DNA from: Myxococcota bacterium
Lineage (GTDB): Bacteria; Myxococcota; XYA12-FULL-58-9; JABJBS01
Direction of reading: 5' to 3'
Length of the DNA stretch: 10,000 nucleotides
NCBI GenBank assembly: GCA_036128675.1
Contig: JAYYQC010000118.1
Location: forward strand, 1 to 10,000
Made by a program: the position numbers and the translations under genes. The notes beneath the pieces were generated by a model. The model ran no database searches. It was not told the origin of the DNA and was given only the letters and a program-made list of their open reading frames with translations. This document shows, in pieces, positions 1-8,628 of this stretch; the first letter of the stretch is position 1, and each line of letters starts with the position of its first letter.

Positions 1-802
1 TCTACTGGGTGCGGCGATGCTTTGGTTCGGTTGGTTTGGCTTCAACGCCGGCTCTTCGCTTGCCGCAGATGGCATCGCGGTGAACGCGTTGATGACAACG
101 CATCTGGCGGCTGCGAGTGCGCTTTTGGTTTGGAGTCTCTGCGAGCTCGTCAGTGGAAGTCGCCCGAGCGCGACTGGTCTTGCTATAGGCGCAGTCGTGG
201 GCCTCGTTGGGGTCACACCTGCAGCAGGCTTTGTTGATTCGCTCGGAGCGATTGCGATTGGCGGTCTCTCCTCCGTTTCAGCATTTGTTGCGATGACTTA
301 TCTGAAGAGATTCGCGCTTGATGACGCGCTTGATGTCTTTGCTTGCCACGGTGTCGGAGGCATCGTCGGGTCGCTCTTGACCGGTGTTTTCGCGTCGACT
401 GCGGTAAACCCTGGTGGTGCAGATGGCTTGCTTGCCGGCAATCCCGCTCAGATGTGGCCACAGCTCACAAGTGTATTAGCGGCAGGTCTGCTGGCGGCAG
501 TCGGAACCTGGACGATCCTTAAGCTGCTCGAACTCACGATTGGGATTCGAGTCTCATCGAATGATGAGCTAAGCCTAGACCAAGCCCTTCATGAAGAGGC
601 TGCCTACGACCAATCTGGGGAGAAACTTTTTGGTGAACGGGTAGTCGACGCTGGCTACGCGACAGCTGCGCAAGTAACCGAAGCACTTCGCTACCAGGTA
701 GAACATGCTTCATCTACGCCGCTTGGTGAGCTTTTGTGTCAGCGAGGGTGTCTAAAGGCTGACCAGCTCTCGGAGCTTTTAGAGTATCGCTTTAGTCGCT
801 AA
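1..802 (+). CDS. amt: Ammonium transporter (Amt/MEP/Rh family), 5-prime truncated at window edge, about 265 C-terminal residues visible. About 63 extra residues follow the canonical Amt C-terminus.
   Basis: The frame is open from nt 2 (LLGAAMLWFGWFGFNAGS...). WFGWFGFNAGS is the Amt signature around the central TM helices. Successive hydrophobic helices follow (GLAIGAVVGLVGVTPAAGF, LGAIAIGGLSSVSAFVAM, HGVGGIVGSLLTGVFA, LTSVLAAGLLAAVGTWTI). The tail GIRVSSNDELSLDQALHEEAAY is co-linear with the E. coli AmtB C-terminus. The ORF then continues to 802. Confidence 0.9.
   Translation, partial: LLGAAMLWFGWFGFNAGSSLAADGIAVNALMTTHLAAASALLVWSLCELVSGSRPSATGLAIGAVVGLVGVTPAAGFVDSLGAIAIGGLSSVSAFVAMTYLKRFALDDALDVFACHGVGGIVGSLLTGVFASTAVNPGGADGLLAGNPAQMWPQLTSVLAAGLLAAVGTWTILKLLELTIGIRVSSNDELSLDQALHEEAAYDQSGEKLFGERVVDAGYATAAQVTEALRYQVEHASSTPLGELLCQRGCLKADQLSELLEYRFSR
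626..793 (+). other. Tandem MshEN-like motifs (GspE/T2SSE N-terminal type, candidate c-di-GMP-binding) in the cytoplasmic tail of the ammonium transporter
   Basis: Residues 204-227, LFGERVVDAGYATAAQVTEALRYQ, fit the published 24-residue MshEN motif RLGxxLLxxGLLxxxxLxxALxxQ at G3, V6V7, G10, V17, A20L21 and Q24. After a 7-8 residue spacer, PLGELLCQRGCLKADQLSELLEYR fits at L2G3, L5L6, G10, L12, L17, L20L21. Read by eye from the translation. No HMM was run. Confidence 0.5.
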
Positions 803-2602
803 CGCGCTTACCTTCTCCCGAACGGTTGGAAGGGTAAGGTTCACGGAGGTCCCTTCTCCGGGCTTGGTGACGATATCAATTGTGCCCCCAATGGCCCGTA
901 CCCTACTCGTGATATTACGAAGGCCAAAGTGACGATAATTTTCACTGCCGGTGAAGTACCCCCCAAGCTCGAACCCAATGCCCTTGTCTCGAACTGAGAT
1001 GAAGAGGTCGCCTGCAGCCATCTCATTAAGCTCTATTTCCACTTGCTTGGTCTCAGCGTGTTTAACCACGTTGAAGAGCAGCTCTCTTACGCACTGGAAA
1101 GCCAGAGCTTCGATTTCAGCGGACTCTAGGCGTTCGTAACTTAGGGTCGATTCAAGCTGAACAGTGAGCCCAAACCGCTCGGACATCGAGTCTCGGATCC
1201 ATTCAATCGCTGCAATGAACCCGGACTCTTTGAGAACCGCCGGGTTCAGGTCGATGCTCATGGTGCGTACCCGTTGAATGCAATCGTCGATAGAGTCCGA
1301 GAGCACCTTCATCTGGGGCTTGGCATTGGAGGGTAAATTGTTGTCGAGAGACGCTAATTGAAAACGAAGCCCTACGAGGTCTTGTTGAAGACTATCGTGG
1401 AGAACCATTGCGATACGTTGACGTTCGCGGTGCTCCACTTCGTTGACTTGAATTGCTAGCCCTTGCAGCTGGTGGGCTTGTTCCCGGACAGTCTTGAGGT
1501 GACTTGCAATGCCTTTTTCTAGCTGTGCTTTCTGCGATTTTAGCTGGCTAAACTTATGATGGCGTTGTGTGATATTACTCAGGGTCCCGGAGAGCGTTGA
1601 TGCTTGTGCTGAGACCTCCAAGACAACTTGAATCCACTGCTTTTGTGCGGACTCCTGACCGTGCATTGCGATCTCGACTTCTGCGGGGCCATCTTGGCGG
1701 GCTTGTCGGATTGCATCGTAGAGAAGGGGGCGGGAGTCTGGCTCAATGCGTCGAAGGATCTCTTTAAGGCCTAACTCGCTGTTGTCTGGAAGGGCGAGTG
1801 CTTTTGCCGCGATCGGTGAGAATTCCAATTCGTTGGTGTTGAGTGAATAACTCCAAGTACCCATACCAACCGAGTTGAGGCTCATCGCCATGAGATTGTA
1901 GGCGTCGGCTAGGAGGGTCTGGGTAGCCAGCAGAGCGTTGCGCCAGCGCATGAGGAGATTGAGTGTTCGATGCCACATGAGACCTAAGAGGATGAAAAAT
2001 CCTAAGGCACTGATGAGTCCAAGTGTCGCCCAAGACTGCTTTTGGCGAAGACTCTTGTCGAACCTTGCATCGATTTGTTCGAGGAAATTGATCATACCCT
2101 CAAGGTAGATCACCTTTTGCTCATCGTACGCACTCTGTCCGAGAACTGCCCGGGCTCTCTCGATGTCCCCGCTTTGAACCGCTTGCAGTGCTTGGCGCTC
2201 CATCTCCACCAGTCGACGGTTGGCTTCGTCTGTTTGGAGAGTGGCTTGGGTGGTCTGTACGTCGTCCTGAACCAGCGCCTCGGTTTCCTTAAGCAGCTTC
2301 TCAAGCAACGGCTCGTTATAGTTGTATCGCTCAATCCATTGTTCATCACCGGTTGCAACCGCCATCCGTGCTGACATTGTAAGTACTTCGTCGAGACGGA
2401 GAATTTCGCCTCTCAATAAAATGAGTTCTTGTTGCTTCTCTCGCAACTCATTCATCGACTTGGGGATATTGTAGACAAGCAGGGCCAGGTAGCAGACCGC
2501 AACGACGGTGAGAGTTGCGGCGAGGCTTAGAGCCGTTCCGGGATAGTCGACCTTGGTCGTCCCGCTTTTTTCAGCGGGGAACTCGGATAGCTTAGATTTC
2601 AT
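779..2602 (-). CDS. Sensor histidine kinase, HisKA_3 (NarX/LiaS/DegS-type) family: TM1, about 145-aa helical periplasmic domain, TM2, PAS-like domain, coiled coil, HisKA_3, HATPase_c
   Basis: H-box ERQRIAMVLHDSLQQDLVGLRFQL (phospho-His at nt 1397-1399). N-box ELLFNVVKHA. G-boxes DKGIGF and GLRNITSRVRAIGGTIDIVTKPGEGTSVNLTLP. Hydrophobic segments ALSLAATLTVVAVCYLALLVY (aa 24-45) and WATLGLISALGFFILLGLMW (aa 191-210) bracket a helical, heptad-rich extracytoplasmic region. Its start overlaps the upstream response-regulator gene by 11 nt. Its last 24 nt overlap the convergent amt gene. Confidence 0.9.
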   Translation of the reverse strand: MKSKLSEFPAEKSGTTKVDYPGTALSLAATLTVVAVCYLALLVYNIPKSMNELREKQQELILLRGEILRLDEVLTMSARMAVATGDEQWIERYNYNEPLLEKLLKETEALVQDDVQTTQATLQTDEANRRLVEMERQALQAVQSGDIERARAVLGQSAYDEQKVIYLEGMINFLEQIDARFDKSLRQKQSWATLGLISALGFFILLGLMWHRTLNLLMRWRNALLATQTLLADAYNLMAMSLNSVGMGTWSYSLNTNELEFSPIAAKALALPDNSELGLKEILRRIEPDSRPLLYDAIRQARQDGPAEVEIAMHGQESAQKQWIQVVLEVSAQASTLSGTLSNITQRHHKFSQLKSQKAQLEKGIASHLKTVREQAHQLQGLAIQVNEVEHRERQRIAMVLHDSLQQDLVGLRFQLASLDNNLPSNAKPQMKVLSDSIDDCIQRVRTMSIDLNPAVLKESGFIAAIEWIRDSMSERFGLTVQLESTLSYERLESAEIEALAFQCVRELLFNVVKHAETKQVEIELNEMAAGDLFISVRDKGIGFELGGYFTGSENYRHFGLRNITSRVRAIGGTIDIVTKPGEGTSVNLTLPTVREKVSALATKAIL

Positions 2603-3278
2603 TGAGCCAATTGAATGCTAGGCGCAGGAGTTGGGGCTGGGTTTGAACTCCAAGCTTTCGCTTAATATGCGCGTAGTGGGCTTCGACGGTTTTGACACTG
2701 ATGAAGAGCTTTTCGGCGATCAAACGCGTCGCGGTCCCTTGTCCGAGGAGTTCAAATATTTCGAGTTCACGGTTGCTCAAAACGCTATAAGGCGAGAGGT
2801 CGTCTGAAGGGCCACCTTGGACAACGCGTCGTAGAAGTCGGTCTTGTTGATCTCGACTGAGTGCAACTTCGTTGCGTACCACTTGCCGAATGCCATTGAG
2901 AAGTTCCGCAGGAGGAGCGGTTTTCATGAAGTAGCCTCGCGCTCCTGCCTTGAGTGCGCGCTCCGCATAGAGTTCTTCTTCATGCATCGAGACGATCAAA
3001 ATTGGGGTTTCAATATCGGAATTACGAACCCGCCGGATCATCTCAATCCCGTTGATATCACCCAGGCTTAGGTCAGCAACGATAACGTCGCATGAGATAT
3101 GTTTGAGGAGTTCGAGGGCAGACCCGCCGGACTCAGCTTCGCCCACGACGGCCATATCTTCTTGGTTGTCGATAAGTGCTTTCAACCCACAACGTACGAC
3201 TGGGTGGTCCTCAACTAATACAGCTCGAATTGGCCCTTGGTTATCGGTTGCATCAGAAACTAGTTTAGCCGTAGTCAT
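2592..3278 (-). CDS. Response regulator, NarL/FixJ family (REC plus LuxR-type HTH)
   Basis: Receiver motifs AVLVEDHPVVRCGLKALI and CDVIVADLSLGDINGIEMI (acceptor Asp in VADLS), with PILIVSMHEEELYAERALKAGARGYF (K-box). The C-terminal LuxR HTH is LSNRELEIFELLGQGTATRLIAEKLFISVKTVEAHYAHIKRKLGV. A strong SD (AGGAGG) lies 8 nt before the ATG at 3278 on the - strand. The 11-nt overlap with the kinase gene suggests translational coupling. Confidence 0.92.
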   Translation of the reverse strand: MTTAKLVSDATDNQGPIRAVLVEDHPVVRCGLKALIDNQEDMAVVGEAESGGSALELLKHISCDVIVADLSLGDINGIEMIRRVRNSDIETPILIVSMHEEELYAERALKAGARGYFMKTAPPAELLNGIRQVVRNEVALSRDQQDRLLRRVVQGGPSDDLSPYSVLSNRELEIFELLGQGTATRLIAEKLFISVKTVEAHYAHIKRKLGVQTQPQLLRLAFNWLNEI

Positions 3279-3347
3279 GTGATCTACCTCCTGGACCCTC
3301 TTTCTGCAAAAACGTTTCGCTTGTCAACCGCAAGTAAGGGGATGAGG

Positions 3348-3364
3348 GTAGGAAATTCCCCTAC
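3348..3364. promoter_or_regulatory. Inverted repeat GTAGG-N7-CCTAC in the divergent response-regulator/glnII intergenic region (alternative pairing GGGGA...TCCCC)
   Basis: gtaggaaattcccctac was read directly. It lies about 150 bp upstream of the glnII start and about 70 bp upstream of the response-regulator start on the other strand. Confidence 0.25.
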
Positions 3365-3468
3365 GCTCAATGGGCTATCCACCTGAACCAAGAATCAGAT
3401 CCTCCCCCAGTGTTTTAACGCCTCGAACTCCGTTATCCGGAGCGCTGAAATTAGGTGTTGTCGCAAAA

Positions 3469-3481
3469 TAAAATTGCGCAA
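3469..3481 (+). promoter_or_regulatory. Candidate -10 (TAAAAT, 3469-3474) abutting the 8-bp palindrome TTGCGCAA (3474-3481), 26 nt upstream of the glnII start. No good -35.
   Basis: Read from the sequence. The upstream hexamer at the proper spacing (tgaaat) is a poor -35 match, which would suit an activator-dependent promoter. Confidence 0.25.
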
Positions 3482-3506
3482 TGCGTTAAACCCAGGGAGA
3501 AGCGTT

Positions 3507-4562
3507 ATGAAAGCAAATATCCAAGCCGAATATCTATGGCTTGACGGCGCAGAGCCAACTCAGGCCTTACGTTCAAAAACCAGAATTATCCGTCGGGATG
3601 TTGATACTTTACCGTCTCATGATGAGCTACCCACTTGGGGCTTTGATGGTTCATCGACCAACCAGGCGTCCGGCGGCGATTCCGACCTGATGTTGCAGCC
3701 CGTTCGCGTTGTCCGCGACCCGATCCGCGGTGGCTCAAATATCTTGGTCCTCTGCGAGGTCATGCATGCGAACGGCAAGCCTCACGAAACCAACCACCGT
3801 GCTGCTCTTCGTGATGTACTGGACCGAGGCGCCGATCGAGAAAATGCCTGGTTCGGCTTTGAGCAAGAATACACACTCTTCAGTGACCAAACACCTCTCG
3901 GCTGGCCGAGCCATGGATACCCTGCGCCTCAGGGACCTTTCTATTGTTCAGTTGGCGCATCGGTTGCATTCGGCCGAACGGTTTGTCAGCGCCATACAGA
4001 TGCCTGTTTGGATGCAGGACTCTTATTCTTTGGTACGAACGCGGAAGTTATGCCAGGGCAGTGGGAGTTCCAAATTGGTTACCGTGGCGACAAAGACGAG
4101 GTCATTGACCCATTGGTATGTACCGACCACCTCTGGATCGCACGTTGGCTTCTTCACCGTATCGCTGAAGAAGAAAACATCACCGTCTCGTTTGAAAACA
4201 AGCCGGTTAAAGGTGATTGGAACGGTGCAGGAATGCACACGAACTTCTCGACTGATTCAATGCGTAGCCGCGAGCGTGGACGCGGTGTCATCGAAGACGC
4301 CGTGGTTGCTTTAGGTAAGCGTCATGCGGAGCACATTGCAATTTATGGCGCGGGTCTGGATGAGAGGCTTACTGGGCTTCATGAGACCTGTAGCATCAAA
4401 GAATTCAAGCATGGGGTTGCTGACCGTGGTGCTTCAATTCGTATCCCCCGTCATGTTGCTGAAGAGGGCTATGGTTACCTCGAAGATCGACGGCCGGGTG
4501 CGAACGCGAACCCATACCAAGTAAGCGCCGAGATTCTGAAGACTGTCTGTAATTTAGACTAA
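3507..4562 (+). CDS. glnII: Glutamine synthetase type II (GSII, eukaryote-like, about 351 aa)
   Basis: MKANIQAEYLWLDG...LRSKTR, FDGSSTNQASGGDSD, WFGFEQEYTLF, PQGPFYCSVGA, NAEVMPGQWEFQIGY, KPVKGDWNGAGMHTNFST, HIAIYGAGLDERLTGLHETCSIKEFKHGVADRGASIRIPR and YLEDRRPGANANPYQV are co-linear with the GSII motifs of Rhizobium, Streptomyces and plants. Start chosen at ATG 3507 (SD GGGAGAAG 5-12 nt upstream) rather than the TTG at 3474 used by the ORF track. Confidence 0.9.
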   Translation: MKANIQAEYLWLDGAEPTQALRSKTRIIRRDVDTLPSHDELPTWGFDGSSTNQASGGDSDLMLQPVRVVRDPIRGGSNILVLCEVMHANGKPHETNHRAALRDVLDRGADRENAWFGFEQEYTLFSDQTPLGWPSHGYPAPQGPFYCSVGASVAFGRTVCQRHTDACLDAGLLFFGTNAEVMPGQWEFQIGYRGDKDEVIDPLVCTDHLWIARWLLHRIAEEENITVSFENKPVKGDWNGAGMHTNFSTDSMRSRERGRGVIEDAVVALGKRHAEHIAIYGAGLDERLTGLHETCSIKEFKHGVADRGASIRIPRHVAEEGYGYLEDRRPGANANPYQVSAEILKTVCNLD

Positions 4563-4576
4563 GTTAGTGAAGCTTC

Positions 4577-4608
4577 GAGGGGCGTCGACCTATCGGGTGG
4601 CGCCCCTC
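4577..4608 (+). other. GC-rich hairpin between glnII and the glutaminase gene (stem GAGGGGCG / CGCCCCTC, about 16-nt loop). Not followed by a U-tract. Candidate partial terminator or RNA-processing/attenuation element.
   Basis: gaggggcgtcgacctatcgggtggcgcccctc read directly. It starts 15 nt after the glnII stop and ends 28 nt before the glutaminase ATG. Confidence 0.3.
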
Positions 4609-4635
4609 TCATTACCGAACGACTAGGGGAAAGCT

Positions 4636-6243
4636 ATGGAAATTGTATCAGCCGAAGAGGCAGGTCGAGCTAAAAAACGAACGAAGAAAAAATCAACATC
4701 GAAGCTCAACGTTGATCGAGCTGGAATCGAACGCGAAGAAGCGCTTTTTCGGGCTCTTGATACAGCGCGTGAAGGTTTTGTTCGCCGCGAGGTAATCATC
4801 GATGCCCTAAAGCTCAGCGGTTTACGACTCGATGACCCGAGGTTGGACGAAACGCTTAAGCGTCTCGATGACCTCGACCCGCCGAATGAGATCGGCTTAG
4901 AGGCCTTCGCTTCAGCGATTGCACCATCGGTGTCTCTGATTGAACGCGCCTTGAAGGGACGTTTGGTCATTCCTGACTTTAAGCAGTTCGAGGGAGAGAT
5001 CCGGGAGATCTTTGAAGAGACTCGAGGTTTTGAGGGCGGCAAGGTTGCTGACTATATCCCCCAACTCGGTCGCGTATCACCGGAACGTTATGGTGTGGCA
5101 CTGTGTACGATCGATGGACAAAGATTGGCCCTCGGTGATGCCGACGAACGTTTCTGCGTTCAGTCGACCTGTAAGCCAATTAACTATTGCCTCGCGTTAG
5201 ATGAACAAGCACCGGAAAAGGTCCATTCTCATGTTGGCCGCGAGCCGAGCGGTCGTGGCTTTAACGAGCTTGCTCTAAATCACGATGGTCGGCCGCACAA
5301 CCCGATGATCAACGCTGGCGCCATCATGACATGTTCTCTCATCAAGCCTGAGCTTGATGTTGCCGATCGGTTTGATCATGTGATGCAGCGCTGGTCGGAT
5401 CTTTGTGGTGGTGCAAAGCCTTCGTTTAGTAACTCCATTTACCTCTCTGAGCGCCAAACTGCTGACCGAAATTTCGCGTTGGGTTATTTCATGCGTGAGC
5501 ACGAGGCATTCCCAGATGGAACGGAGCTTGTTGATATCCTTGAGTTCTATTTCCAGTGCTGTTCCATCGAAGTGACAGCCGAGATGATGTCGATGGTCGC
5601 TGCGACTCTCGCCAACGGTGGGATTTGTCCGACTACGGGCCTTCGTGTCTTTGGTCCCGAGACGGTGCGAAACTGCCTGTCCTTGATGTACTCGTGCGGC
5701 ATGTATGACTTTTCGGGCGAGTTTGCCTTTACAATCGGTCTACCTGCGAAGAGCGGCGTTTCCGGGGCTATGATGATCGTCATCCCGAACGTGATGGGCG
5801 TGTGTACTTGGTCACCTCGCTTAGACCGTCTCGGCAACAGTGTTCGCGGCATCGAGTTCTGTAAGTCGCTTGTGGAGCGGTACAATTTTCATAACTACGA
5901 CAATTTGACTGGCATCTCCGATAAACGAGATCCTCGTCATGATGCCTCTGCCGATGAAGGGGAGCATATTGCTCTTATGATTTGGGCGGCAAGCCGCGGC
6001 GACCTTGGGGCAATTCAACGCCTTATCGCCCGTGGTGCCTCGATTGATGCGCCTGATTATGACGGACGTACCCCGCTGCATTTAGCGGCGGCTGAAGGCC
6101 AAAGACATGTCGTTGAGTTCTTTTTGAAAGCGGGTGCAAAGCTGTCGCCAGCGGATCGTTGGGGCAACACACCTCTCGATGACGCTAAGAAAGCGAAGCA
6201 CAACGAAATTACGGAAATGCTTGAGCGCTCTGGGCTCAATTAA
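4636..6243 (+). CDS. Kidney-type (GLS-like) glutaminase, full-length eukaryote-like architecture: N-terminal helical (EF-hand-like) domain, serine-dependent beta-lactamase-fold catalytic domain, C-terminal ankyrin repeats
   Basis: GGKVADYIPQL, FCVQSTCKP (catalytic Ser177-x-x-Lys180, nt 5164-5175), HVGREPSG, HNPMINAGAI, SERQTADRNFALGYF, FYFQCCSIEVT, ATLANGG, LSLMYSCGMYDFSGEFAF, GLPAKSGVSGAMMIVIPNVMG and GNSVRGIEFC are co-linear with human GLS/KGA as I recall it. I estimate more than half of catalytic-domain positions identical. The C-terminus holds three ankyrin repeats (DYDGRTPLHLAAAEGQRHVVEFFLKAGAKLSPADRWGNTPLDDA). The N-terminal ALKLSGLRLDDPRLDETLKRL parallels GLS ALKSTGLRTSDPRLKECMDMLRL. 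SD GGGGAA precedes the ATG. Confidence 0.92.
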   Translation: MEIVSAEEAGRAKKRTKKKSTSKLNVDRAGIEREEALFRALDTAREGFVRREVIIDALKLSGLRLDDPRLDETLKRLDDLDPPNEIGLEAFASAIAPSVSLIERALKGRLVIPDFKQFEGEIREIFEETRGFEGGKVADYIPQLGRVSPERYGVALCTIDGQRLALGDADERFCVQSTCKPINYCLALDEQAPEKVHSHVGREPSGRGFNELALNHDGRPHNPMINAGAIMTCSLIKPELDVADRFDHVMQRWSDLCGGAKPSFSNSIYLSERQTADRNFALGYFMREHEAFPDGTELVDILEFYFQCCSIEVTAEMMSMVAATLANGGICPTTGLRVFGPETVRNCLSLMYSCGMYDFSGEFAFTIGLPAKSGVSGAMMIVIPNVMGVCTWSPRLDRLGNSVRGIEFCKSLVERYNFHNYDNLTGISDKRDPRHDASADEGEHIALMIWAASRGDLGAIQRLIARGASIDAPDYDGRTPLHLAAAEGQRHVVEFFLKAGAKLSPADRWGNTPLDDAKKAKHNEITEMLERSGLN

Positions 6244-6250
6244 GGAGACA

Positions 6251-6655
6251 ATGATGAACTTAGTCTTTGTTATCGCAATGAATGCCGCGTTGGCCTGTGG
6301 GGATGCGAAGGCATCGGTGGAATTTGATGTTCCAGCTTCAGTACTGACCGTCAACGATGGTACCGAACTACTTCGTGAGTTGAGTGGCGTTTTGCTAAAA
6401 GATGGCAAAATTACTCTGGATGCTAAGAATGGACTTATTCGAGGTACACAGCAGGCGTTCGGTGATTATCGGGTCTCATTAAACATGGACCGCCGACAAC
6501 TGGCGCTCTCCTGCGGTGCGGCGAAGGCTACCACCGAAGTCACCACGAAGCGTCACGCTCGGGGACGCCGCTTCGCATCAAGCTCAGCGCAGACCTCTCG
6601 TTGCGAACGAGAAGTTTCTGCAATGATCCAGACGCATCTAACGGCGTCACGTTGA
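6251..6655 (+). CDS. Hypothetical small exported protein (134 aa) with an N-terminal signal peptide and a possible lipobox (ALAC). The C-terminal third is Arg/Ser/Thr-rich.
   Basis: ATGATG at 6251 lies 5 nt after a perfect AAGGAG and 7 nt after the glutaminase stop. MMNLVFVIAMNAALAC|GDAKA is a Sec/lipoprotein-type leader. The ORF fills the whole gap between the glutaminase and the convergent yqjG. I recognise no family. Confidence 0.55.
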   Translation: MMNLVFVIAMNAALACGDAKASVEFDVPASVLTVNDGTELLRELSGVLLKDGKITLDAKNGLIRGTQQAFGDYRVSLNMDRRQLALSCGAAKATTEVTTKRHARGRRFASSSAQTSRCEREVSAMIQTHLTASR

Positions 6656-7767: not shown

Positions 7768-8628
7768 ATGATGATGCAAAAAGAAAAGGCAATGAAGCCT
7801 ATTGCTGGGCTTCCGGTAGTGTTGGTCGGGTTATTGTTGGTGGGTGCACTTGTTGTTGGCTTGATTTCCCGATTGCTGCACCCTGGACTCGGAGTCGTAT
7901 TGTTGGCGTTGGTAATCTTCTCGGGCTTTGGACTTTTTATGGTGCATCCGAATCAGGCAAAGGTGCTCCAACTCTTTGGTAAATATATTGGCACCGCTAA
8001 AGAGCCTGGTCTTCGATGGGCGAACCCATTTTTTACAAAGCTGAATGTTTCGACAAGGATCCGAAACTTCGAAACTTCAAAGCTTAAAGTCAACGACCAG
8101 CGAGGTAATCCAATCGAAATCGCAGCGGTTGTTGTTTGGAAGGTCGTTGATACCGCCGAAGCGGTTTTCGAAGTCAATGACTTTGAAAATTTCGTTAGGG
8201 TCCAGAGCGAAGCTGCGATTCGAACATTGGCATGCCAGTACCCATACGACGCCCATGGTGAGGATGAAGTATCATTGGTGAGTAATACGACACTGATATC
8301 CGGCCGATTGAAGGAAGAGGTACAGGGGCGTCTTGATAAAGCGGGTATCGAGATCATTGAGACCCGTATGTCGCATTTAGCTTATTCCCCTGAAATTGCA
8401 CAGGCAATGTTGCGGCGTCAGCAGGCCAGCGCAGTCATTGCTGCGCGTCGGGAAATTGTTGATGGTGCAGTCGGGATGGTAGAGCATGCACTCGAAGATC
8501 TCTCAGCGAAAAAGGTAGTGGATTTGGATGAAGAGCGTAAAGCAGCAATGGTGAGCAATCTCTTGGTCGTGCTTTGTTCTGAGTCGGAAACACAGCCAAT
8601 CATTAATACCGGTAGTCTTTACAACTAG
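7768..8628 (+). CDS. SPFH/band-7 (stomatin/prohibitin-like) membrane protein with two N-terminal transmembrane helices
   Basis: VLQLFGKYIGTAKEPGLRWANPFF...TSKLKVNDQRGNPIEIAAVVVWKVVDTAEAVFEVNDFENFVRVQSEAAIRTLA shows the SPFH pattern, followed by the C-terminal helical region EIAQAMLRRQQASAVIAARREIVDG. TM helices: PIAGLPVVLVGLLLVGALVVGLI and GLGVVLLALVIFSGFGLFMV. Three in-frame ATGs (7768, 7771, 7774) follow the SD. Confidence 0.88.
   Translation: MMMQKEKAMKPIAGLPVVLVGLLLVGALVVGLISRLLHPGLGVVLLALVIFSGFGLFMVHPNQAKVLQLFGKYIGTAKEPGLRWANPFFTKLNVSTRIRNFETSKLKVNDQRGNPIEIAAVVVWKVVDTAEAVFEVNDFENFVRVQSEAAIRTLACQYPYDAHGEDEVSLVSNTTLISGRLKEEVQGRLDKAGIEIIETRMSHLAYSPEIAQAMLRRQQASAVIAARREIVDGAVGMVEHALEDLSAKKVVDLDEERKAAMVSNLLVVLCSESETQPIINTGSLYN

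Follow-up and report, generated by a model that had tools for sequence, protein, structure and literature searches.

How does a bacterium come to encode a glutaminase built like that of animals? The window that we analysed, a 10,000-nucleotide stretch of a Myxococcota genome, carries a gene for a 535-residue protein with the domain order of human kidney-type glutaminase (KGA), and the initial annotation, which regarded this as an exceptional "metazoan-like" find, offered two origins: retention of a long form by the lineage or exchange with eukaryotes. Retention fits our data; exchange is opposed by the bacterial clade in which the protein falls, by its native composition and by its conserved synteny. 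We conclude that the gene product is very probably a long-form glutaminase (L-glutamine amidohydrolase) native to bacteria, with a gene inherited within its lineage and not recently taken up from a eukaryote.

The three-part architecture itself is secure, as Pfam domains, an end-to-end match to KGA and an AlphaFold2 model all agree on it (Table 1). In Pfam, EF-hand_14 matches residues 34-113 (E 1.2e-10, 42 bits against a cut-off of 23.7), Glutaminase matches residues 135-421 (367 bits against a cut-off of 27, with profile positions 1-286 covered) and Ank_2 matches residues 449-529 (E 4.3e-22, 78.9 bits), while the bacterial equivalog TIGR03814, glutaminase A, of NCBIfam scores 300.9 bits, above its cut-off of 255.4. 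With E-values this low, chance resemblance to the glutaminase architecture is not an issue. The motif GGKVADYIPQL occupies residues 134-144, and a sequence check of the N-domain found no canonical calcium-binding EF-hand loop. The AlphaFold2 model (pLDDT 85.3, pTM 0.76) places helix pairs after the catalytic domain at residues 437-465, 480-498 and 513-534. Homologues of at most 76% identity begin to align only at about residues 26-35; two at 84-85% identity (P0002 and P0003) span 100% of the query and so support the ATG at 4636. One metagenome protein in ENA (P0001) is 100% identical to the glutaminase.

Table 1. Features of the glutaminase gene and its neighbourhood in the window (residue numbers are those of the glutaminase)
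Feature	Position	Strand	Basis or remark
Ammonium transporter (Amt), N-terminus cut by window edge	17..802	+	PF00909 E 1.3e-50; TIGR00836, NF053729
HisKA_3 sensor histidine kinase, 607 aa	779..2602	-	HisKA_3 plus HATPase_c
NarL/LuxR-family response regulator	2592..3278	-	Response_reg plus GerE
Divergent regulator/glnII intergenic region, presumed control region	3279..3506	.	Same arrangement in L010, L013, L015
glnII, type II glutamine synthetase, 351 aa	3507..4562	+	NCBIfam GlnII E 1.9e-136; PDB 4bax E 3.6e-114
glnII-glutaminase spacer, 73 nt	4563..4635	+	GC-rich hairpin 4577-4608 without T-run; RBS-like AGGGGA 4625-4630
Long-form glutaminase gene, "glutaminase A" type	4636..6243	+	ATG start, 535 aa plus stop
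Lys-rich N-terminal tail, residues 1-33, predicted disordered	4636..4734	+	pLDDT <50 for residues 1-27
EF-hand-like helical N-domain, residues 34-113	4735..4974	+	PF17959; helices 32-41, 51-60, 68-79, 88-106
Serine-dependent glutaminase catalytic domain, residues 135-421	5038..5898	+	PF04960 E 7.9e-110
Activation loop, residues 206-218, GRGFNELALNHDG	5251..5289	+	Unlike vertebrate GLRFNKLFLNEDD at Pi/BPTES positions
Equivalents of mammalian filament-interface residues: F246, F264, N266, Y269, E303, Q307	5371..5559	+	Residue mapping
C-terminal ankyrin module, single, three repeats, residues 449-535	5980..6240	+	Ank_2; three helix pairs

The resemblance to KGA runs along the whole chain. Human KGA is the best PDB match (5uqe_A, query residues 36-530, E 2.9e-160), and weaker matches are to GLS2 (E 7.5e-150) and E. 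coli YbaS (E 2.2e-51). Overall identity to KGA is 48.9% over 495 aligned residues, comprising 58.9% (169/287) in the catalytic domain, 43.2% in the ankyrin module and 30.4% in the EF-hand-like domain; catalytic identity to GLS2 is 54.4%. The catalytic identity of more than 50% to human GLS, which the initial annotation had estimated, is thus confirmed by computation and lies above the 35% or less that it would have called ordinary. Superposed on near-full-length KGA (8gwr_B), the model gives a TMq of 0.83 and a TMt of 0.88 over 500 columns, and its N-terminal plus catalytic part fits GAC with a TMt of 0.96 and an rmsd of 1.5 A. S177, K180 and Y357 align with the Ser-Lys-Tyr catalytic triad of KGA (S286, K289 and Y466), Y140, N226, E272, Y305 and V375 align with the substrate residues Y249, N335, E381, Y414 and V484, and the catalytic residues are kept in about 152-158 of 160 long forms. 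Domain order, catalytic and substrate residues and fold are common to KGA (5uqe, 8gwr), GLS2 (8szl) and the bacterial protein, and the sequences indicate that the bacterial long form is homologous to eukaryotic GLS/GLS2 over its whole length. KGA has a long mitochondrial N-terminal region, whereas the bacterial protein, encoded in a bacterial nitrogen operon and devoid of a mitochondrial targeting region, has a Lys-rich tail of 33 residues before its N-domain.

Short bacterial glutaminases stand further away. E. coli GlsA1/YbaS and GlsB/YneH and B. subtilis YbgJ share the PF04960 family and serine-lysine chemistry with the long form, but they are only ~310 aa long, lack the EF-hand-like and ankyrin domains and show 35-37% catalytic identity; the two E. 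coli forms, at 310 and 308 aa, bear out what the initial annotation said of typical bacterial enzymes. These short forms are reported to be Pi-independent and non-filamentous (PMC13142944).

The regulatory surfaces of KGA are retained unevenly. In the activation loop, R317, K320, F322 and E325 of KGA are replaced by G208, E211, A213 and H216, respectively, so the Pi-binding R317/K320 pair and the R317-E325 salt bridge are missing. The BPTES/CB-839 pocket is likewise incomplete, with F209 and L212 kept but F322 replaced by A213 and Y394 by F285; the Pi-contacting R387 of KGA is retained. Since the loop lacks R317, K320, F322 and E325 and Y394 is a phenylalanine, neither phosphate gating nor sensitivity to BPTES or CB-839 is expected. 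The loop instead has the generic form GRxFNELxLN, not the vertebrate Lys320-containing type, as it does in Nannocystis radixulma P0020 and other bacterial "glutaminase A" proteins, and of the 118 bacterial core sequences 108 have Glu in place of K320. For the filament interface we mapped GLS F355, F373, N375, F378, D412 and Q416 (PMC13142944, PMC10912226) onto the bacterial protein. Four of the six are identical and two conservatively replaced, which makes the interface conserved at the level of sequence, and of 118 bacterial long forms 105-117 keep these residues; E. coli GlsA1 and GlsB do not. Fold stability, rather than the formation of filaments, could account for this conservation.

The long form is far from the rarity that its animal-like architecture suggested. 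Database matches to the protein at E<=1e-20 number 7728, numerous 50%-identity clusters span the full query, and Glutaminase plus Ank occurs in every one of the nearest 120 clusters, the named sources of which represent at least six phyla (named clusters include Myxococcota, Planctomycetota, Acidobacteriota, Dadabacteria, Gammaproteobacteria, Flavobacteriia and Actinomycetota). Long-form loci were located in genomes of Polyangiales, Myxococcota, Flavobacterium, Flavobacteriaceae and Actinomycetota; a Maricaulaceae match is partial and covers only the C-terminal part. The closest relatives are bacterial (71-85% identical), the nearest named homologues are 71-73% identical, and named bacterial long forms (N. 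radixulma P0020 and Myxococcota, Planctomycetota, Acidobacteriota and Dadabacteria MAGs) are 55-71% identical overall. Catalytic identity to the protein is 59-76% across bacterial phyla and 59% in human, so a value as high as the human one characterizes the long-form family at large. Contigs of giant-virus MAGs (GVMAG) also commonly carry the long form, full-length with all three domains but in a viral context (residues ~13-533 covered, 40-53% identical). Given its presence in thousands of bacteria, in many phyla and in giant viruses, we see an ordinary member of a known but under-studied family, with no sign of exchange with animals; such proteins already go by the name glutaminase A in the NCBI pipeline.

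Neighbor-joining (NJ) trees place the protein, together with the Myxococcota MAG sequence P0009, in a 12-leaf clade with 100% bootstrap support, and this clade lies in a 118-leaf bacterial core group supported at 76% in the catalytic-domain tree and 86% in the full-length tree. A position in a broad bacterial clade of long forms is the outcome that the initial annotation had itself named as contrary to its reading. The core does not include animals (GLS/GLS2), protists, giant viruses or Flavobacteriia; the catalytic-domain tree was rooted on two E. coli sequences, and the giant viruses are only in the midpoint-rooted full-length tree. Identities in the catalytic, ankyrin and EF-hand-like domains rise and fall together (Spearman 0.73 and 0.66), and the same relatives also supply the best ankyrin matches; to judge from these comparisons, the protein is free of domain shuffling.

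The trees also bear on an older event, in which the long form would have been built in early eukaryotes, entered bacteria once, possibly via giant viruses, and then spread among phyla by horizontal transfer. In the E. coli-rooted tree animal, protist and unlabelled lineages branch below a bacterial core that looks derived, the form is common on giant-virus contigs, and its distribution among bacterial phyla appears patchy in our sampling, in lineages that are known for eukaryote-like genes. The duplicated ankyrin block of most bacterial members also looks derived. The relevant backbone nodes of the catalytic-domain tree, however, have bootstrap values of 0-37%, the backbone of the full-length tree is poorly supported as well, the root consists of just two sequences, and the bacterial core is as diverse as the identities of 59-76% across phyla imply. 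We consider such an ancient transfer possible but unlikely.

What the ankyrin module does is a separate matter. As in KGA, it is one three-repeat module with conserved motifs, and two of these, DYDxR..HLA (D474, Y475, D476, R478, H482, L483 and A484) and DRW..T...DA (D507, R508, W509, T512, D516 and A517), show little or no variation between bacteria and eukaryotes. A single KGA-like module, as here, is found in 26 of the 120 nearest clusters; 91 have a doubled post-catalytic region, in four of which two ankyrin blocks were shown. An N-terminal extension was ruled out for this longer class, the additional length being a second ankyrin block. Ankyrin repeats are generic protein-protein interaction modules, and the initial annotation took them to imply partner proteins in the bacterium; a small open reading frame stands at a conserved position after the glutaminase both here and in the relative L015. 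The two small frames, however, are barely similar (E 0.043), and no candidate partner gene is conserved beside the glutaminase across phyla. In KGA and GLS2, moreover, the repeats are sandwiched between N-domains within the dimer of the enzyme itself, and in the homo-oligomer they restrain activation like a brake (PMC10912226). Motifs so nearly invariant from bacteria to animals point to a conserved self-contact rather than to a lineage-specific partner, and we regard recruitment of other proteins as distinctly improbable. According to Pasquali et al. 2017 (cited in PMC13142944), ankyrin repeats were gained early in glutaminase evolution.

The neighbourhood in turn is that of a bacterial nitrogen locus. 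The adjacent gene is indeed a type II glutamine synthetase (GSII), as first annotated; its best PDB match, 4bax, is the Streptomyces enzyme, and its nearest named homologues come from Deltaproteobacteria/Myxococcota MAGs, the same taxa as the glutaminase homologues. We place its start at the ATG at 3507, as relatives are 351-352 aa long; the mechanical open reading frame begins at a TTG at 3474. The initial annotation had asked whether related bacteria carry the long form, and they do: the order regulator/glnII/glutaminase is common to relatives L010, L013 and L015, an Amt gene belongs to the cluster or is found close to it in L010, L013 and L018, and the cultured isolate Nannocystis radixulma has amt-glnK-glutaminase-glnII plus the kinase and regulator. 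Nannocystis and four relatives have the regulator beside glnII, and the kinase-regulator pair recurs in Nannocystis; the kinase is absent from L010, L013 and L015. Synteny is kept across relatives of 62-75% identity, and the cluster of Amt, kinase plus LuxR-type regulator, GSII and glutaminase is conserved in Myxococcota. Outside them glnII adjoins the glutaminase in one Flavobacterium. Linkage to the synthetase is not found everywhere, being absent from the loci of Acidobacteria, Thiodiazotropha and Polyangiales and from two of Flavobacteriaceae. The C-terminus of the Amt has an MshE-like tail.

The noncoding parts of the cluster offer little by way of control elements. The 73-nt spacer has no terminator-like site on the + strand, its fold (-29 kcal/mol, z -1.57) is not exceptional, and it is not kept in relatives (glnII and the glutaminase gene overlap in L015); on these grounds, and for want of a T-run, we rejected its hairpin as an attenuator or terminator. 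One sigma-70-like match lies at 3445-3474 in the regulator/glnII intergenic region, where a conserved operator was also rejected, as relatives share only a weak block, TAGGnnATnCCC, and no inverted repeats. Across the whole window, no Rfam family, the glutamine riboswitch included, gave a hit of E<=1.

Composition and selection complete the case against a recent horizontal gain of a eukaryotic GLS, from an animal or any other eukaryote. Full-length collinearity with KGA at 59% catalytic identity would suit such a gain, and ankyrin repeats are far commoner in eukaryotes. Yet GC3 is 0.534, against 0.49-0.62 in neighbouring genes, and codon-usage distance is 0.110, against 0.097-0.173, so that the compositional check proposed for a foreign origin gave values within the neighbours' range and a compositional signal of transfer is rejected. 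Together with bacterial closest relatives, nesting within the bacterial core, an operon context kept in relatives down to 62% identity and an activation loop of generic rather than vertebrate type, this leaves a recent gain very improbable. Against a colinear sister relative (90% nucleotide identity, on a 276-kb contig), dN/dS is 0.023 overall, 0.061 in the EF-hand-like domain, 0.004 in the catalytic domain and 0.024 in the ankyrin module: all three domains are under strong purifying selection in this lineage. Low dS (0.09) in the first 33 codons was rejected as the mark of an RNA element because several further 100-nt windows are equally conserved. Nor is the split glutaminase of the sister contig (L089) a pseudogene; the split stems from a 1-nt deletion within a C homopolymer, and fragmented calls affect several other genes of this pilon-polished assembly as well. 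The host is probably Myxococcota-like, going by the nearest named homologues, although the sister contig also bears PSCyt/PSD domain families, which are also typical of Planctomycetota. That eukaryotic or chimeric DNA was misread as prokaryotic, for which nothing speaks beyond the animal-like architecture, has a negligible chance of being right, given the tight packing of intron-free genes on both strands, their overlapping ends and RBS-like sites, the presence among them of amt, glnII and a two-component system, the colinear relative and the same cluster in the cultured Nannocystis genome.

If the protein is a native long form, its active-site conservation predicts that it would convert glutamine to glutamate plus ammonium, probably as a homotetramer. 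We infer that it is co-transcribed with glnII from the divergent region upstream because the gap between the genes is 73 nt and has no T-run terminator, although it does hold a stable hairpin, which counts against this; the adjacent NarL-type two-component system may exert control. By analogy with KGA and GLS2, the ankyrin module may serve as an internal brake on activating movements. Retained filament residues and replaced phosphate-sensing Lys and Arg suggest activation by substrate or oligomerization, probably not by phosphate, and such post-translational control may spare the cell a futile cycle with the glutamine synthetase expressed alongside. A search of the literature found nothing specific on bacterial ankyrin glutaminases or glnII-glutaminase operons, and no published activity, oligomeric-state or transcript results for any bacterial long form. 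Only tentatively, and with more doubt than confidence, we propose that bacterial long forms are substrate-gated filament-formers, as mammalian GLS is, but without a phosphate brake (Glu replacing Lys320), in which the ankyrin module limits polymerization, and that in Myxococcota this switch is co-encoded with GSII (and Amt/GlnK).

Bacterial long forms, with filament-interface residues and an ankyrin brake apparently retained but no phosphate sensor, occupy a middle position: on one side are the short bacterial enzymes, which need no Pi and form no filaments, and on the other the mammalian ones, which are activated in filaments and serve as cancer drug targets. As the culturable Nannocystis has the cluster, the order in which filamentation, ankyrin braking and phosphate gating arose is directly testable. 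The conserved pairing with GSII raises a physiological question of its own, namely, how two opposing glutamine reactions are controlled. Should our proposal be correct, Myxococcota could co-express glutamine synthesis and breakdown without a futile cycle, and filament-based control of glutaminase would be shared with, or older than, eukaryotes and not an animal or mitochondrial innovation.

The long-form glutaminase of the window is an ordinary member of a known, experimentally neglected bacterial family with thousands of bacterial examples in the databases. With candidates capped at 8,000, searching 5.8 billion protein clusters gave at least 7,728 matches at E ≤ 1e-20; all 120 of the best combine Glutaminase and Ank domains, approximately 107 of these 120 also carry a precomputed EF-hand_14 match, and their source names include Myxococcota, Nannocystis radixulma, Planctomycetota, Acidobacteriota, Dadabacteria, Candidatus Thiodiazotropha, and Pseudomonadota. 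This breadth of phyla does not support the rarity implied by the initial annotation. One cluster (P0001) is the identical protein, already present in an ENA metagenome assembly. Exhaustive HMMER searching of 1.84 billion 50%-identity representatives yielded many distinct clusters that align with residues ~30 to 533 of the query. With each GTDB species represented by a single genome, scanning located long-form loci in Polyangiales, Myxococcota, one Flavobacterium isolate, two Flavobacteriaceae metagenome-assembled genomes (MAGs), and one Actinomycetota MAG, together with a partial Maricaulaceae match covering only the C-terminal part. In the Actinomycetota MAG (L007, 6001-7438), tblastn recovers the glutaminase as two pieces that overlap and lie in different frames, so the gene is apparently frameshifted or a pseudogene. 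NCBI labels the homologues "glutaminase A," and the window protein scores over the curated cut-off for that family (TIGR03814, 300.9 vs 255.4 bits). PMC13142944, citing Pasquali 2017, records the existence and early origin of ankyrin-bearing glutaminases.

The open reading frame is real, and the three-part architecture first read from the sequence was upheld by Pfam (see the table), by PDB matches, and by a structural model. Among all PDB sequences, the top match was human kidney-type glutaminase (E 2.9e-160, query residues 36-530), followed by liver-type GLS2 (E 7.5e-150), with the short Escherichia coli YbaS at just E 2.2e-51. Against the human sequences taken from these matches, catalytic-domain identity is 58.9% (169/287) with the kidney-type isoform KGA, in agreement with the initial estimate of more than 50%, and 54.4% with GLS2; identity with KGA is 43.2% in the ankyrin (ANK) region, 30.4% in the EF-hand-like domain, and 48.9% overall across 495 aligned residues. 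An AlphaFold2 model, built from an alignment of 42 sequences, is confident (pLDDT 85.3, pTM 0.76) and has three helix pairs C-terminal to the catalytic domain; it matches near-full-length KGA (8gwr_B) with TM scores of 0.83/0.88 over 500 columns, and its N-terminal and catalytic part superposes on structures of the GAC isoform at ~1.5 Å. By every structural criterion tested, the window protein belongs to the GLS-type multidomain glutaminases and would work as they do; the vertebrate phosphate-activated subtype is excluded, because the activation-loop residues of that subtype were checked and are absent.

Features of the window and domains of its glutaminase
Feature	Position	Strand	Remarks
Amt	17-802	+	Cut by left window edge
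Amt C-terminal extension	629-784	+	~52 aa
HisKA_3 kinase, then LuxR/NarL-type regulator		-	
Regulator/glnII intergenic region	3279-3506		
glnII	3507 (probable true start, ATG)		351 aa; length matches relatives
glnII-glutaminase spacer			73 nt
Glutaminase	4636-6243	+	535 aa
EF-hand_14	residues 34-113		Pfam E 1.2e-10, over curated cut-off
Glutaminase domain	residues 135-421		Pfam E 7.9e-110
Ankyrin repeats	residues 449-529		Pfam Ank_2 E 4.3e-22
Small ORF	6251-6655	+	134 aa; starts 8 nt past glutaminase stop
GST, SPFH, SDR genes			3' of small ORF

The high identity to the human enzyme is not special, because catalytic-domain identity to the window protein is 59 to 76% in other bacterial phyla, 59% in human, and 35 to 37% in the E. 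coli short forms, and is thus a property of the whole family; the human figure lies above the approximately 35% or less that the initial annotation would have considered ordinary. We built neighbor-joining (NJ) trees with 100 bootstraps from 160 to 176 aligned sequences, comprising the 120 nearest clusters, 32 diverse representatives, labeled bacterial loci, human KGA and GLS2, an ostracod, three EukProt protists, and, later, 16 giant-virus sequences, with E. coli GlsA1/GlsB as the outgroup. The window protein falls with a Myxococcota MAG protein (P0009) in a 12-leaf clade at 100%, inside a 118-leaf group made up exclusively of bacterial (Myxococcota, Nannocystis, Planctomycetota, Acidobacteriota, Dadabacteria, and Gammaproteobacteria) or unlabeled sequences. 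Bootstrap support for this bacterial core group is 76% on full-length sequences, 86% with giant viruses included, and drops to 29% when the tree is built from the catalytic domain by itself. Human KGA, GLS2, and the ostracod form their own clade apart from it, and protists, Flavobacteriia, and giant viruses form further distinct groups. Placement in a broad bacterial long-form clade (76 to 86%, full-length) argues against the exceptional, metazoan-like status first suspected, and is the very outcome that the initial annotation had named as counting against it. The backbone between groups has negligible support, and the donor and recipient of the long form therefore cannot be read from these NJ trees.

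The gene is native to its host lineage on five counts. First, the comparison of composition that had been suggested at the outset places it within the range of its neighbors, both in GC3 (0.534; seven neighbors, 0.49 to 0.62) and in codon-usage distance to the rest (0.110; neighbors, 0.097 to 0.173). Second, across 156 homologues, catalytic identity to the window protein co-varies with ANK (Spearman 0.73) and EF-hand-like (0.66) identity, and the closest ANK matches are also the closest catalytic matches, namely Myxococcota-type relatives, so there is no sign of a separately grafted ANK region. Third, a 276-kb sister contig (L089) is colinear with the whole window at 90% nucleotide identity, and dN/dS between the two glutaminases is 0.023 overall (EF-hand-like, 0.061; catalytic, 0.004; ANK, 0.024). 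Fourth, the L089 glutaminase (11131-12737) is called as two genes owing to the loss of 1 nt from a run of Cs at the equivalent of window position 5058; we rejected a pseudogene and read the split as a long-read assembly error, because in this pilon-polished assembly the calls of Amt, SPFH, and SDR are likewise broken up or cut short. Fifth, the nearest named relatives of the adjacent GSII come from the taxa already seen for the glutaminase, first Deltaproteobacteria/Myxococcota (72 to 73%), then Acidobacteriota, Planctomycetota, and Polyangiales. L089 also carries PSCyt3, PSD4/PSD5, and HXXSHH (DUF1552-type) genes (1438-2010, 2881-3051, and 18889-21056), families typical of Planctomycetota and marine Myxococcota; a Myxococcota host is therefore probable and less than certain.

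The identity of the GSII neighbor was confirmed (NCBIfam GlnII, E 1.9e-136; PDB 4bax, E 3.6e-114). A divergent regulator, glnII, and glutaminase recur in three relatives at 70 to 75% identity, two of which also have Amt at the locus; in cultured Nannocystis radixulma, kinase and regulator diverge from amt-glnK-glutaminase-glnII, and in the Flavobacterium isolate glnII adjoins the long glutaminase. The linkage is absent at Acidobacteria, Thiodiazotropha, and several other long-form loci examined, and is thus Myxococcota-centered and not family-wide. Co-transcription of glnII and glutaminase is plausible from the arrangement: the spacer holds a stable hairpin without a T-run, unexceptional against shuffles, and no terminator-like site was found on its plus strand. 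No Rfam family matched anywhere in the window. Compared with its equivalents in three relatives (L010, L013, and L015), the regulator/glnII intergenic region shares one short block only (TAGGAAATTCCCC at ~3360-3372 in the window; TAGGnnATnCCC overall), a weak candidate for an operator. The Amt tail matches NCBIfam NF053729, "cyclic di-GMP-binding domain, MshE-related," slightly under the 38-bit cut-off (E 7.1e-8, 32.1 bits), and c-di-GMP regulation of Amt is possible; the Amt frame runs with its final 24 nt into the end of the kinase gene, which is convergent with it. The small ORF has a ribosome-binding site (AAGGAGA) overlapping the glutaminase stop, a lipoprotein-like N-terminus (MMNLVFVIAMNAALACG), and no match in Pfam or NCBIfam. 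In L015, that position holds a 135-aa protein with a signal peptide and no annotation, whose colinear resemblance to the ORF is marginal (E 0.043, 20% identity); the ORF is also present in L089, at a below-average nucleotide identity of 0.877.

All KGA catalytic and substrate-contacting residues are kept (Y140, S177, K180, N226, E272, Y305, Y357, and V375). In GAC and GLS2, activation-loop residues R317 and K320 bind phosphate, and the K320A substitution makes the enzyme constitutively active; filaments form by stacking of tetramers via F355, F373, F378, D412, Q416, and GLS2 N308 (GLS N375), the ANK repeats hold back the scissor movement required for activation, and short bacterial glutaminases have neither filament interface nor Pi dependence (PMC10912226; PMC13142944). 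The filament interface, which the initial annotation had proposed to probe by structure prediction, is retained in the alignment: the equivalents in the window protein are F246, F264, Y269, E303, Q307, and N266, the same or conservative in 105 to 117 of the 118 bacterial core sequences, whereas E. coli GlsA1/GlsB have unrelated residues there. The Pi contact R387 is invariant. The activation loop (residues 206-218) reads GRGFNELALNHDG in the window protein versus GLRFNKLFLNEDD in human, with K320 replaced by E, R317 by G, F322 by A, and E325 by H, and Y394 is replaced by F; Glu occupies the K320 position in 108 of the 118. A GRxFNELxLN loop is common to bacteria, protists, the ostracod, and other animal-clade members. 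The Lys320/Phe322 loop targeted by BPTES and CB-839 looks derived, because only vertebrate-like sequences within the animal clade carry it; the loop of the window protein is of the generic type. Judging from these residues, the enzyme is probably neither phosphate-gated nor BPTES-sensitive, and it may assemble through the mammalian-type filament interface.

We propose that the ANK repeats act as an internal brake. Bacterial and eukaryotic sequences alike carry the motifs DYDxR..HLA and DRW..T...DA with little or no variation, which fits a conserved self-contact better than the partner proteins initially expected of this region, or any lineage-specific partner; Pasquali et al. reportedly described conserved ANK motifs in intramolecular contacts. 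Co-expression with GSII would otherwise give an ATP-wasting cycle, and a post-translational switch on the glutaminase would be a reasonable way round it.

Family members vary around this plan. The post-catalytic region is 220 to 280 aa in 91 of the 120 nearest clusters (P0020, P0044, P0056, and P0015 among them), with two Ank_2 blocks in all four such members scanned with Pfam, and a single 100- to 140-aa module in 26; most bacterial long forms thus have a duplicated ANK region, whereas the window protein, with 114 aa after the catalytic domain, has a single module like KGA. A canonical DxDxDG-type calcium-binding loop occurs in 7 of 120 N-domains (P0015, P0027, P0054, P0065, P0103, P0105, and P0109), and P0015 exceeds the Pfam EF-hand_7 cut-off, so a subset of long forms may bind calcium. 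The N-domain of the window protein has no canonical EF loop, and that of human GLS is not known to bind calcium either. At least 16 contigs of giant-virus MAGs (L020-L036; IMG/VR, mostly GVMAG-labeled) encode full-length three-domain forms at 40 to 53% identity to the window protein; these forms cluster loosely, outside the bacterial core group, in the NJ tree. Giant viruses could have carried the gene between domains.

The modest interest of this family lies in a filament interface conserved without the phosphate sensor, in a Myxococcota nitrogen cluster that joins glutaminase with GSII, and in a deep history that links bacteria, eukaryotes, and giant viruses through the long form.
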